This document shows positions 2,476 through 10,913 of a stretch of 64,000 bases of DNA, piece by piece. This DNA is from Escherichia phage ECO319P1. The stretch is taken from sequence record OP172790; one strand, 5' to 3'. Numbering within the stretch: position 1 is the first letter of the stretch; every line of letters begins with the position of its first letter. The translations under genes and the position numbers were made by a program. Under the pieces are notes generated by a model. That model was given only the letters and a program-made list of their open reading frames with translations, ran no database searches and was not told the origin of the DNA.

Positions 2476-3348
2476 ATGGTTTGGGCAGTTATTGAAAACC
2501 ACAAAGGCCAACGGGAAGATTTCCGTAAGCCGTGCTTTGGTTTCATGTCCTACATTCATCAGTGGTACGAAACTGACGAGTGGGACGACGAAGAGGACGA
2601 TTGGGAATACGAATACCTTGAAGGTTTCGAACCCGCCGAACTCAACCTCATGCACTACTTCCCTGATTTCCGCAACCATATGCCGAGTCAGGATTTGCCT
2701 GAGTTCCGTGAGAAGTATCTGCCTGTGCTGTTGGAAGCTGTGAAGCTTCTGCCTCAGTATTACTCGAACGTTGAGTACACTGCTCCAACTGATAGCACTC
2801 AGGAGACGTTTACGTTCGCCCTGCAAGATGCGAACATGCAAACGACAATCATCGGTGCTATGATGCTGCGTAACATTGCTCAGTATTCTGGTATGCGTCG
2901 CGTGTTCCGTCTTTGCGTTGACGCTGGCCTTGACCCTGTAACCTGCTTCGTTATGGGTAACATGTACAGCAGCAACTACTGCTCGTTTGGTGCTGATGCT
3001 GGTAAGTATCTGGCAAACCCTGTTCACTACGGTGACGAGTCAATCTTCCCAGATGAAACTCGCGCTTGTGATATCCAGGCGTTCATTGACGGTAAGCTCG
3101 GTCACATCTACCAAGGTGTGTGGGGCGATACTGAAAATGGTTATGGTCGTTATGGTGAGTATGACGGTGATACCGCACCTCGCTTTGAACGTACCGGTAA
3201 TCGTTCAACCATCACTGACACTCTGCTGTTGGCTGATGATTACGTTGACTCACCATTGCTGATGGATATCGAAATCGGTGTTTGTTCATCGGCTCGCTTC
3301 AGTGATGAAGAGTTGATTGTTCTTGCTGGTAAAATTACTGGTAAATAA
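2476..3348 (+). CDS. hypothetical protein, first gene of amidoligase cluster (acidic W/E/D-rich N-region)
   Basis: AGAGGTG RBS, ATG start, 290 aa; co-oriented and tightly spaced with downstream ligase genes. Confidence 0.6.
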   Translation: MVWAVIENHKGQREDFRKPCFGFMSYIHQWYETDEWDDEEDDWEYEYLEGFEPAELNLMHYFPDFRNHMPSQDLPEFREKYLPVLLEAVKLLPQYYSNVEYTAPTDSTQETFTFALQDANMQTTIIGAMMLRNIAQYSGMRRVFRLCVDAGLDPVTCFVMGNMYSSNYCSFGADAGKYLANPVHYGDESIFPDETRACDIQAFIDGKLGHIYQGVWGDTENGYGRYGEYDGDTAPRFERTGNRSTITDTLLLADDYVDSPLLMDIEIGVCSSARFSDEELIVLAGKITGK

Positions 3349-3359
3349 AGGATAAAACA

Positions 3360-4304
3360 ATGTCAGTAAAATTCGACGTAGTTTACAAGGATGGATTCAA
3401 ATTGAAAATGACCTCAATTTGTTTCGGTGTAATGGAGAAGGGGCGCTGGAATGAAATCAACGGGTATCGCAATATGCCCGCTGAGAATCATCAGGATGCA
3501 GACCAGCGCTTCATTCAGTTCTACACCAACGCTTACATTCACCCGATGTGGGCGTATGAAGAAGGTATTAAGCGCGATTGGCCTCGTGGTGAAGATAACC
3601 AAGAAGGTCGAAACAAAGCTTCGAAGAACTTCATCAATGAGATGAAAGAACTTCAGAAAGACATGCCGTTCCTGCAAGGGCTTGTCACCTTCCATCCATT
3701 GTTACACGTTGCCCGTGTGCATATCAAAAATCACACGGTTGACCAGATTATGCTGGCATTGTTTTTGGTACGTAACATGTGCCATTACAGCAACAACTGT
3801 TTCACTTACCGCTGGTTACGTGAGACATACAACATGCGTCCAATGCTGGCGGCAGTAATGTGCCATCAGTTCTCAATGGACTTAGGCTCGTTCGGGCGTC
3901 ATTCGTTCTCTCCAGCATGTCTGGGTGAGTACAACTGGATTAACCCCCAGACGTTCGGTAAAGAGTCGTTGCTTCGTTTCATGACCCATACGAAAGAAAC
4001 AGAATTCGAATATCGTCAGGGCATGTGGAAGGACAGTAAAGGTTATCGTCGTGACGACCACTTTGCTCGTAACGATGTTATCTTCGACAGCGAAATCGGC
4101 GGCTCGAACAAATACTGGAAGATGGTAGCACCATTCAGTATTCCGGGCGACGAAGCGATTAATGCCAATCAATGTAAAGACCGTTATAGCGGTATGGTGA
4201 TTGGTCGCAGTTGGAACCACGAACTGAGCCAAGGTGAAGTAGAGAACTACATCAGTGGTGTTCTCGAACTTCTGGCAGAAAACAATATCCCAGCAACTCT
4301 CTAA
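3360..4304 (+). CDS. hypothetical protein (amidoligase cluster)
   Basis: AAGGA RBS, ATG start, 314 aa, 11-nt spacing from upstream gene. Confidence 0.6.
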   Translation: MSVKFDVVYKDGFKLKMTSICFGVMEKGRWNEINGYRNMPAENHQDADQRFIQFYTNAYIHPMWAYEEGIKRDWPRGEDNQEGRNKASKNFINEMKELQKDMPFLQGLVTFHPLLHVARVHIKNHTVDQIMLALFLVRNMCHYSNNCFTYRWLRETYNMRPMLAAVMCHQFSMDLGSFGRHSFSPACLGEYNWINPQTFGKESLLRFMTHTKETEFEYRQGMWKDSKGYRRDDHFARNDVIFDSEIGGSNKYWKMVAPFSIPGDEAINANQCKDRYSGMVIGRSWNHELSQGEVENYISGVLELLAENNIPATL

Positions 4305-4316
4305 GGTAATAAAGAC

Positions 4317-9204: not shown

Positions 9205-9438
9205 ATGGATAATTCAATGAGTGAAGTGAAGGTTTTGCGTCTGGATTCACCTGTGGTGGTTCGAAAAGTTCCAATGACTGACTTCGGTAGTGATATGCTC
9301 CGAGCCATTCGTCGCTTCCAAACTGAGGCGTATGAACGTGCAAAAGGTCAGAAGGTGGAAATCCCTTATCCTGTGTGTATTCACATGATGATGTCGGATT
9401 ACTGCAAGCTGAAAGGCATCCAAGTAACCAATGGCTGA
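9205..9438 (+). CDS. hypothetical protein
   Basis: AAGGA RBS 8 nt upstream of ATG, immediately after upstream stop. Confidence 0.45.
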   Translation: MDNSMSEVKVLRLDSPVVVRKVPMTDFGSDMLRAIRRFQTEAYERAKGQKVEIPYPVCIHMMMSDYCKLKGIQVTNG

Positions 9439-9643
9439 TAAAGATGTCGAAAAGGCTCGCAAGGAAAGCGAGTCTTGGCACAACCGTCAGATTGGAAACT
9501 TGTTAGAAGAAGAGTGGGAGTACGCAAAACAAATGGGTACTCAGGAGGGCCAAGAGGCCATCTGGTATCTCACTCTTTCTTATGAAACACTGGAAGCAGA
9601 AATCATGGAACACAAACGTGATATCCGTGAACTTCATCTTTGA
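9431..9643 (+). CDS. hypothetical protein
   Basis: ORF overlapping upstream stop; weak RBS. Confidence 0.4.
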   Translation: MADKDVEKARKESESWHNRQIGNLLEEEWEYAKQMGTQEGQEAIWYLTLSYETLEAEIMEHKRDIRELHL

Positions 9644-9713
9644 GTGAGTTATTTATAGGGTGTCGGTGAAGCGCCCTATGTGAAATTCATTCTCAACTAA
9701 AAGGTACTTATCA

Positions 9714-10913
9714 ATGGCACGTTTAGCAATCTACTCCCACGCTCCTTCTGATTCTGTTAATGCACTTAAAGCGCACTTATCAGTGGAAGGCGTTGACCTG
9801 ATTAAAATCAAGCGTCAGAACAGCCGCTTCGCTGGTCGTGAAGGCGATGTAATCATTAACTATGGTTCATCCTCTTTCCCAATGGAACGTGTTGGTCGTG
9901 GTCGTCTGCTGAACAATCCGGGAGCAATCTCTCTGGCTTCTAACAAACTTCGTGCATTCGAGGTGTTCCAGAACGCTGGGGTTAAGACTGTAGAGTGGAC
10001 TAATCAACACTCAATCGCTCAAGGTTGGGTAGAACAAGGTGGTATGGTTTATGCAAGAACAACGCTTCAAGGACATTCTGGTGCCGGTATCGTTATTGGC
10101 TACGGAAATCCTGCCGGAGTGGGAGATGCGGGCGACGTACAGGTTACTAGCACCCTTCCTCGCGCACAACTGTACACCAAAGCAATCCTGCAAGAACGTC
10201 GAGAGTTCCGAATCCATGTAATGGATGGTAAGATTACTTACGTTCAGCAGAAACGTCGTCGTGATGGTTTCCGTGAGAATGAAACCTACAGCAATCTGGT
10301 TCGTAACCACCACACTGGTTGGATTTATGCAACTCAGAACGCTGATGTGTGTGACGAAGCGAAGCGCGAAGCAATCAAAGCAATCGAAGCTTTAGGTCTG
10401 GACTTCGGTGCAGTAGATGTAATCACACGCCGTGGTGAAGCATGGGTTCTCGAAGTCAACACTGCTCCGGGCATGTCTGGCACTAACCTCGAAACTTATG
10501 CAAACAACTTCACTCGCCTGATGAACGGTGAACCCGTTGAAGGTGTAGTGGTTGATATGTCTATCCCTGTGGAGACGAACAATGATAACCGCAACACCCG
10601 TAATGAACGCCAGTCTGGCAATCGCAATACACAACCTCAACCAGAACAACCTCAACCAGAACAACCGACGCCAACCCCTGTCGCTACCCCAGCGCCAACA
10701 GCACCAGCCGAAGCGCCGGTTTCCTCAGCGACAACCCGCAACACCAATGGTACTGCATTAATTGATAACGGTGTTTACAAACTGTTGGTTGATGGTAATG
10801 CCACTGTTGGTAAATTCGTTCAAGATTGTGCCCACTTCGAAATTCTTGGCTGGGAGGTTCCGGTCGAGCATGAAGATGCAACTATTGGGGAACTCCTGTG
10901 CACTTTGAACTAA
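9714..10913 (+). CDS. ATP-grasp fold amide ligase (RimK/GshB-like) with Pro/Gln-rich linker and small C-terminal domain
   Basis: AAAGG RBS; ATP-grasp signature blocks (SNKLRAFEVF, GHSGAGIVI, REFRIHV, VLEVNTAPGMSG). Confidence 0.75.
   Translation: MARLAIYSHAPSDSVNALKAHLSVEGVDLIKIKRQNSRFAGREGDVIINYGSSSFPMERVGRGRLLNNPGAISLASNKLRAFEVFQNAGVKTVEWTNQHSIAQGWVEQGGMVYARTTLQGHSGAGIVIGYGNPAGVGDAGDVQVTSTLPRAQLYTKAILQERREFRIHVMDGKITYVQQKRRRDGFRENETYSNLVRNHHTGWIYATQNADVCDEAKREAIKAIEALGLDFGAVDVITRRGEAWVLEVNTAPGMSGTNLETYANNFTRLMNGEPVEGVVVDMSIPVETNNDNRNTRNERQSGNRNTQPQPEQPQPEQPTPTPVATPAPTAPAEAPVSSATTRNTNGTALIDNGVYKLLVDGNATVGKFVQDCAHFEILGWEVPVEHEDATIGELLCTLN
10631..10666. repeat. in-frame tandem repeat, 15-bp unit ACAACCTCAACCAGA x2.4, encoding QPQPE linker inside ATP-grasp gene
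   Basis: Two perfect adjacent copies plus partial third copy read directly from sequence. Confidence 0.85.

Follow-up and report, generated by a model that had tools for sequence, protein, structure and literature searches.

A new copy of a widespread amidoligase cassette in Escherichia phage ECO319P1 and the pathway it might encode

What is made by the carboxylate-amine ligases, the amidotransferase, and the ATP-grasp ligase that are encoded side by side in Escherichia phage ECO319P1? The question is raised by a gene cluster at positions 2476-10913 of a 64,000-nt stretch of this phage (sequence record OP172790), which is the window analyzed here. A preliminary description based on the letters alone had seen in the cluster an amide- or peptide-bond-forming set of genes outside the standard phage functions, and the enzyme families that we identified bear this out. 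It had also presented the cluster as an undescribed system, which it is not: judged by sequence and synteny, it is a new species-level copy of the known and widespread cassette of the phiEco32/7-11/LUZ24/RIO-1 type. Regarding its function, we favor, with a probability of about 0.5, the podovirus 'amidoligase / putative peptidoglycan-modification' type, that is, a cytoplasmic pathway building an amide or a short peptide in which a gamma-glutamyl group would serve as a transient handle.

The cluster is a copy of a known cassette

The window shares 85.4% nucleotide identity with Cronobacter phage GAP52 over 98% of its length and 85.1% with phage A24 over 96%; both are Grimontviridae of the genus Crifsvirus and, according to their annotation, agree with it in gene content and gene order. 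The cassette is also syntenic in LUZ24, NJ01, O4, CW02, CVT22, and cr108_1, so that, together with the annotation of phage 7-11, it extends over phiEco32-like, LUZ24-like, and Zobellviridae phages and a crAss-like phage. Conservation among related phages, which had been named beforehand as a check, was evident from a tblastn search with the ligase P3, which retrieved 312 phage records from Grimontviridae, Kuravirus (phiEco32-like), Bruynoghevirus (LUZ24-like), Zobellviridae, Aeromonas and Vibrio phages, and a crAss-like phage. This conservation places the predicted open reading frames (ORFs) of the cluster far from chance ORFs. A pattern scan of IMG/VR additionally found P3 in at least 591 viral contigs. 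Matches to PHROG families are far stronger than those to Pfam (E 1e-106 to 1e-173).

A comparative-genomic description of the cassette is attributed to Iyer et al. 2009, who proposed wall modification against superinfection (via PMC10580990, PMC11318856, PMC5498523). The name 'peptidoglycan modification cassette/module' goes back to Hardies et al. 2013 (via PMC5498523, PMC11945000); the passages concerned in these two sources list the cassette in phiEco32, 7-11, LUZ24, PaP3, tf, PA11, CW02, and RIO-1 and offer preparation of the wall for lysis as an alternative role. In the parts of these papers that deal with the cassette, its role at the cell wall is a prediction only (PMC10580990, PMC11318856, PMC5498523, PMC11945000). 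The ECO319P1 copy has the Pfam and PHROG families, the gene order, and the site upstream of a primase/helicase gene in common with the phiEco32/7-11/LUZ24/RIO-1 cassette, and nothing essential differs; at the nucleotide level, the cluster is 85% identical to the annotated copy in GAP52. Specific to the lineage are a pair of P1/P2 paralogues, a long extension at the N-terminus of P5, three zinc ribbons in P6, a C-terminal domain of P9, and a displaced cyclotransferase gene. The genes are as follows.

P1, 2476..3348, plus strand: 290 aa; no Pfam match; divergent paralogue of P2
P2, 3360..4304, plus strand: 314 aa; no Pfam match; founding member of the P1/P2 family
P3, 4317..5114, plus strand: 265 aa; PF14395, phiEco32-type COOH-NH2 ligase
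P4, 5114..5692, plus strand: 192 aa; no Pfam match; SH3/Tudor-like beta-barrel in the model
P5, 5662..7173, plus strand: 503 aa; PF12224 Amidoligase_2, glutamine synthetase/gamma-glutamylcysteine synthetase (GS/GCS)-fold ligase family
P6, 7233..9203, plus strand: 656 aa; GATase_6, class-II (N-terminal nucleophile, Ntn) amidotransferase-like, starts with MCGIV
P7, 9205..9438, plus strand: 77 aa; DUF7195 (PF23825)
P8, 9431..9643, plus strand: 70 aa; acidic, lineage-specific small ORF
P9, 9714..10913, plus strand: 399 aa; RimK-like ATP-grasp ligase
Cyclotransferase, 14707..15141, plus strand: AIG2-like gamma-glutamyl(amine) cyclotransferase (PF06094 GGACT, E 2e-17)
Primase/helicase, 15722-17521: a short way downstream of the cyclotransferase gene

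The interval thus holds nine near-contiguous plus-strand ORFs with gaps of -31 to +70 nt; their common orientation and tight packing had been described correctly, whereas the count of seven missed two, P7 and P8. The stop and start codons of P3, P4, and P5 overlap, which suggests that the three are translationally coupled. No transmembrane-like segment was predicted in any cluster protein, and the PADLOC defence/anti-defence library gave no match. Since a promoter and terminator scan returned sites no more numerous than in shuffled controls, operon boundaries could not be called. At ~9 kb, the cassette takes up more than 10% of the ~76-kb genome.

Comparison of 80 viral contigs, and of gene maps drawn for the 88 loci obtained by ORF clustering, showed that the order P3, P4-like, Amidoligase_2, class-II amidotransferase, ATP-grasp is essentially universal. 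All four enzymes are encoded in 66 of the 88 loci, referred to as complete loci below. Each of eight reference loci that we compared has a P6-type amidotransferase and a P9-type ATP-grasp protein. Recurrent neighbors are genes for primase, helicase, polA, exonuclease, single-stranded DNA-binding protein, ribonucleotide reductase, ThyX, dCMP deaminase, and endonuclease VII.

Three ligases with conserved catalytic motifs

Profile searches confirmed the Pfam families that had been guessed for the enzymes, namely PF14395 (P3), PF12224 (P5), GATase_6, and RimK-type ATP-grasp. P3 scores 27.3 bits against PF14395 (cutoff 25), matches phrog_3815 (E 2.8e-106), and is 47% identical to Kuravirus NJ01_102. 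In its family alignment with seven homologues, D9-P10-E11, E52, H140, H142, E198-Y199-R200, R135, R180, and R191 are invariant, as is the loop FGCxPDFNA. P5 reaches 23.6 bits against PF12224 (cutoff 22) and E 1.5e-115 against phrog_7469; E142, E144, E146, H209, H211, E300-F301-R302, R167, and R244 do not vary in the alignment with six homologues. Its N-terminal extension of ~110 aa is lineage-specific, the Kuravirus and LUZ24 homologues starting at residue 111. The acidic, His, and Arg motifs that bind metal and ATP in GS/GCS-fold ligases (ExE, HxH, E-[YF]-R) are therefore invariant in both alignments, and we predict that P3 and P5 are carboxylate-amine ligases of this fold with intact catalytic motifs. 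The preliminary description had pointed out these motifs and had called the two proteins paralogues; the motifs held, but close paralogy did not, as neither BLASTP nor hhalign detected direct similarity between P3 and P5. Their predicted kinship is at the superfamily level only.

The ATP-grasp ligase was likewise confirmed. P9 matches Pfam RimK with 27.5 bits (cutoff 21; E 2.8e-6), Dala_Dala_lig_C with E 3.5e-5, and phrog_2599 with E 1.2e-137. Its best NCBIfam matches, MptN (39 bits, cutoff 350) and the rimK_fam alpha-L-glutamate ligases (35 bits, cutoff 143), lie far below the cutoffs. We assign P9 from its sequence as an ATP-grasp ligase of the RimK clade, to which no substrate can be assigned. 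Only a core of ~250 aa, without the C-terminal extension, is conserved across all lineages, and the linker is rich in P and Q. ATP-grasp proteins measure ~620 aa in Proteus phage relatives, 399 aa here, and ~250 aa in Zobellviridae, so this extension is highly variable across lineages. Sequence searches of the PDB with P2, P3, P4, and P5 yielded nothing useful.

The amidotransferase and the removal of gamma-glutamyl groups

P6 matches GATase_6 with E 1.1e-13, and its Cys directly follows the initiator Met (MCGIV), as had been noticed for the class-II amidotransferase-like protein. In an alignment with GlmS, R97 corresponds to R73 and H122-N123-G124 to H97-N98-G99. D141-S142 is invariant across lineages when P6 is aligned with the homologues from LUZ24, O4, CW02, CVT22, Kuravirus NJ01, and the crAss-like cr108_1; from the DSE/DTE motif, it would be the equivalent of GlmS D123. 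The amidotransferase domain is followed by a low-complexity linker, a further region outside Pfam, and CxxC zinc ribbons, of which this phage has three. Of the other six lineages in the alignment, four (LUZ24, O4, CW02, CVT22) keep a CxxC...CxxC pair; the NJ01 homologue has CxxC pairs of its own, and that of cr108_1 has none. Between residues ~240 and 656, no known synthase (acceptor) domain was found with Pfam or NCBIfam, save for a weak match to a FYVE-like zinc finger. P6 is hence best described as a protein with a predicted intact glutamine/gamma-glutamyl site and without a synthase domain of known type.

The amidotransferase of the Kuravirus Escherichia phage NJ01 (12525-12947) is annotated ~125 aa too short: '...KICGIVLAGGNL' extends the reading frame beyond the annotated start in the upstream direction, right behind a stop codon. 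As this extension directly follows the stop codon, initiation must take place at a codon other than ATG, GTG, or TTG immediately before the nucleophile Cys.

Both a GATase-like and an AIG2-like enzyme had been reported for the cluster. Both are in the window, but the AIG2-like gene lies outside the interval, 3.8 kb beyond the cluster end, displaced downstream by NUDIX, WYL, and RnlB genes. In LUZ24 and many viral contigs, the GGACT orthologue stands directly behind the ATP-grasp gene, and we regard the cyclotransferase at 14707-15141, by its sequence family, as the cassette's last enzyme, detached from the rest. GGACT is present in 35 of the 66 complete loci. A C26-like family (~210-230 aa) occurs in 23 loci; two of its members, O4_58 and cr108_1 gp_22629, match Peptidase_C26 (gamma-glutamyl hydrolase/PuuD type). 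One or the other gene is found in 56 of the 66 complete loci. Members of the P1/P2 family are encoded in 34 loci, 29 of these with GGACT, and never together with the C26-like family (0 of 66). The accessory genes thus fall into two mutually exclusive sets, P1/P2 with GGACT or a C26-like hydrolase, an alternation that is new here. A second accessory family paired with the C26-like gene (c8) turned out to be DNA primase and is therefore a marker of phage lineage, not a part of the cassette.

P1/P2, P4, and the small ORFs

P1 matches phrog_24882 and has no Pfam, NCBIfam, or PADLOC match. It is related to P2 by BLASTP (E 2e-5), and in a structural comparison the P1 orthologue of GAP52 matches the P2 model (E 1.7e-8, TM ~0.6). 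The true paralogue pair of the cluster, according to these sequence and model comparisons, is P1/P2 and not P3/P5. P1 is the sole protein among 83 aligned family members without equivalents of the near-invariant D128 and E190 (Gln and Gly take their places) and is possibly a partner of P2 whose catalytic site has degenerated. Both proteins diverge faster than the enzymes of the cluster: P1 is 87% and 66% identical to its counterparts in GAP52 and A24, compared to 97-98% for P3.

A profile search with P2 over 1.84 billion proteins returned just 87 cluster representatives. R138 and Y229 are invariant in the family, and seven further polar or small residues are nearly so. The AlphaFold2 model of P2 is confident (pLDDT 94.5) and gave no convincing fold match, resembling PafA and Dop only faintly; when BFVD was searched with this model, all proteins returned were uncharacterized and came from cassette-bearing phages, among them the P1 orthologue of GAP52. 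These searches indicate that P1/P2 is a phage-only family restricted to cassette-bearing phages, which is reported here for the first time, and P2 is probably an enzyme or a specificity subunit. LUZ24 gp14 and gp15 were considered as homologues and rejected, the hhalign comparison not being significant; gp14 has only an N-terminal 'CFG' motif in common.

P4 is modeled as a largely beta protein with an SH3/Tudor-like barrel. A P4-like gene lies between both ligase genes in 65 of the 66 complete loci, and both hmmsearch and hhalign (98.6%) speak for its homology to P4. From sequence and model, P4 would be a universal core subunit of non-enzymatic appearance, which is likewise new here. The P4 homologue of Pseudomonas phage KV2023 (cf. 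LUZ24 gp17) is a 'virion structural protein' by its UniRef label only; if the label is true, it would suggest an association with the virion.

P7 belongs to DUF7195 (PF23825, E 7e-37) and has homologues in Kuravirus and LUZ24, likewise between the amidotransferase and ATP-grasp genes. The arrangement recalls pupylation (PafA/Dop and Pup), where GS/GCS-fold ligases adjoin a small conserved protein, and P2 weakly echoes the PafA/Dop structure. In contrast to Pup, P7 lacks a conserved C-terminal Gly-Gly-Gln/Glu, and the C-termini of the family vary by lineage ('..VTNG', '..KSGS', '..DYFE'). A role as a Pup- or ubiquitin-like tag was rejected because the C-terminus is not conserved. A guess by eye that P7 is a ribbon-helix-helix regulator was dropped, as a PDB profile search with P7 gave no match. 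P8 occurs only in relatives of GAP52 and A24 and matches phrog_36016 weakly (E 1.3e-4).

A candidate pathway and its weak points

Characterized GS/GCS-fold ligases activate the gamma-carboxylate of glutamate, and AIG2-like enzymes (BtrG, GGACT) as well as PuuD-type enzymes cleave gamma-glutamyl-amines. Together, these two activities suggest a transient gamma-glutamyl handle. The cluster proteins would be soluble products of the early/replication transcription unit and would probably act as one pathway. P3 and P5 would activate the gamma-carboxylate of glutamate as acyl-phosphate and join it to an amine, like their characterized fold relatives, and P9 would add an amino acid, probably glutamate, onto a carboxylate; in this respect, we count in favor that alpha-L-glutamate ligases of NCBIfam are the closest to P9. 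Up to three amide bonds could be formed by the three ligases together. The Ntn domain of P6 would bind a glutamine or gamma-glutamyl moiety and either supply amide nitrogen or trim the gamma-glutamyl group. GGACT would act last and take the gamma-glutamyl group off the amine as 5-oxoproline, a step that would fall to the Peptidase_C26-like hydrolase in other lineages. P4, being universal, probably translationally coupled, non-enzymatic in appearance, and located between the two ligases, probably scaffolds them or presents the acceptor, and P1/P2 would be a fast-evolving accessory pair. The net product would be an acceptor modified with an amide or a short peptide. While the enzyme families, their motifs, the gene order, and the alternation of GGACT and C26 are given by the data above, we infer the order of the reactions, the use of gamma-glutamyl chemistry by P3 and P5, and the identity of the acceptor.

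The logic proposed here is known from butirosin biosynthesis (BtrJ ATP-grasp and BtrG AIG2-like) and from PuuA/PuuD, in which a gamma-glutamyl-amine is formed at the expense of ATP and then removed, either by a cyclotransferase of the AIG2-like type or by a hydrolase of the C26 type; both types of remover are found among the variants of the cassette. Unlike these systems, the cassette has no carrier protein, aminoglycoside, or polyamine-catabolic gene, and its ligases come from different, uncharacterized families.

As to the acceptor, a peptidoglycan stem-peptide precursor, which is the published guess, would be the single most likely target, a choice that we make tentatively and at clearly less than even odds. 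Precedents for such enzymes on peptidoglycan precursors exist among both ATP-grasp proteins (Ddl, the D-Asp ligase Aslfm) and amidotransferases (MurT/GatD, LtsA/AsnB1). Several points weigh against this interpretation. We found no experiment on the product, the function, or the role in infection of any cassette member in the searchable literature, in line with the preliminary description. Pfam and NCBIfam searches with the cluster proteins revealed neither a recognizable peptidoglycan- or UDP-sugar-binding domain nor a Mur-type ligase. As P3 and P5 are barely above their Pfam cutoffs and the ATP-grasp protein is far under the NCBIfam equivalog cutoffs, substrates cannot be transferred from relatives. 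Moreover, the substrates for which GGACT, C26, and class-II GATase enzymes are known carry an L-gamma-glutamyl group, but the gamma-glutamyl residue of peptidoglycan is D-Glu. Finally, the zinc ribbons of P6, the SH3/Tudor-like P4, and the extensions of the cluster proteins, which are probably disordered according to their composition and poor conservation, are at least as compatible with a protein or a nucleic acid as the target.

Several podovirus lineages that are not related to each other, as well as one crAss-like phage, have retained the cassette; their hosts range over Enterobacteria, Pseudomonas, Vibrio, marine bacteria, and gut Bacteroidota. Fifteen years after it was first noticed, solving its chemistry would reveal either a new phage envelope remodelling or a new macromolecular modification and would give functions to two orphan families, P1/P2 and P4. 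In practical terms, the present copy is of limited value: it adds a further instance, a more precise inventory of the parts, and constraints that can be tested.

Alternative explanations

The features that suit a macromolecular target lead to a different assignment, in which the ligases put glutamate or a short Glu-containing peptide on a host or phage protein, either on a lysine or on a carboxylate at the C-terminus or in a side chain, in analogy to RimK on S6, TTLL polyglutamylases, SidJ, and PafA. P6, GGACT, and C26 would then trim or erase the modification, and the target would be picked by P4, perhaps together with P1/P2. A protein target would fit P4, the P6 zinc ribbons, and the variable extensions; we consider protein modification unlikely. 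A broader version, which we also deem improbable, sees the cassette as a gamma-glutamyl build-and-trim system on a macromolecule, either protein or phage nucleic acid, and not on the wall, with P4 as acceptor-presenting scaffold and P1/P2 as fast-evolving specificity/transfer module. Under this version, the C26-like lineages would be without that module, and in its nucleic-acid form the system would be the missing explanation for the resistance of Gordonclarkvirinae to restriction-modification (RM).

The cassette could instead encode a soluble metabolite pathway, that is, a phage gamma-glutamyl cycle on a small amine or thiol, which would adapt the pools of polyamines, thiols, or nitrogen to the needs of replication and packaging. 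This could be a PuuA/PuuD-like gamma-glutamyl-polyamine route or a glutathione-like route of GCL and ATP-grasp synthetase with GGCT turnover. The enzyme set indeed parallels PuuA/PuuD, which combine a GS-like ligase with a C26 hydrolase, GshA/GshB, which combine GCS with an ATP-grasp enzyme, and the ergothioneine enzymes EgtA/EgtC, a GCS2-type ligase with a class-II GATase-like gamma-glutamyl amidohydrolase, and the alternation of C26-like and GGACT genes, the solubility of all proteins, and the nucleotide-metabolism neighbors fit as well. The likeness to EgtA/EgtC consists of a GCS-fold ligase and an Ntn Cys1 enzyme that keeps the glutamine-binding residues and is without a known synthase domain. 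However, with E 0.0056 and 16 bits (cutoff 219), the weak match of P6 to EgtC is negligible, and no homologues of EgtB, EgtD, or EgtE are present. For such a pathway, a universal non-catalytic P4 and the conserved P6 zinc ribbons would be superfluous, three ligases with two or three cleaving enzymes would be excessive for adjusting a pool, and no transporter or polyamine/thiol enzyme is associated. We rate the metabolite pathway as quite unlikely.

The attachment of an amino-acid-derived group to phage DNA or to tRNA/RNA is attractive because cassette-bearing Gordonclarkvirinae show an unexplained RM resistance (PMC11990801), which it would account for, and it draws on the location of the cassette, always among or beside replication and nucleotide-metabolism genes, on the co-occurrence of amidoligase and amidotransferase genes with thymidine-hypermodification genes in metagenomes (PMC8989533), and on the P6 zinc ribbons. 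It is very improbable all the same: annotation and Pfam searches found no hydroxymethylase, 5-HMUDK, aGPT-Pplase, or DpdA/TGT-like gene in the early/middle part of the A24 genome or among the neighbor families, some cassette-bearing contigs encode ThyX, no DNA-binding or base-flipping domain is recognizable, and the DNA of the cassette-bearing phage tf was cut by RsaI, HpaI, EcoRV, SmaI, and HaeIII and cloned (PMC3517423).

Neighboring genes

Between P9 and the cyclotransferase gene, the window encodes a NUDIX hydrolase (11152-11685), a 75-aa WYL-domain protein (11685-11912), an RnlB-like RNA ligase (12620-13585), and a DUF7448 protein (14284-14640). Phage A24 additionally has RtcB and a phosphatase further along, which suggests an RNA-repair set. 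Just upstream of the cassette lie genes for a TerD-domain protein (28-594, E 1.3e-11) and a SleB-like endolysin (654-1079). In the early regions of GAP52 (1-4600) and A24 (33117-39140), we found another TerD/TerZ-like protein and a Ter-associated membrane protein, as well as two neighboring genes of nicotinamide-phosphoribosyltransferase-like and ribose-phosphate-pyrophosphokinase-like type. This pair presumably resembles the NARP1 NAD+-reconstitution counter-defence pathway. The cumulative GC skew reaches its maximum at ~36000-38000 in the window and then declines, which is consistent with a switch of the coding strand between two opposed transcription units.

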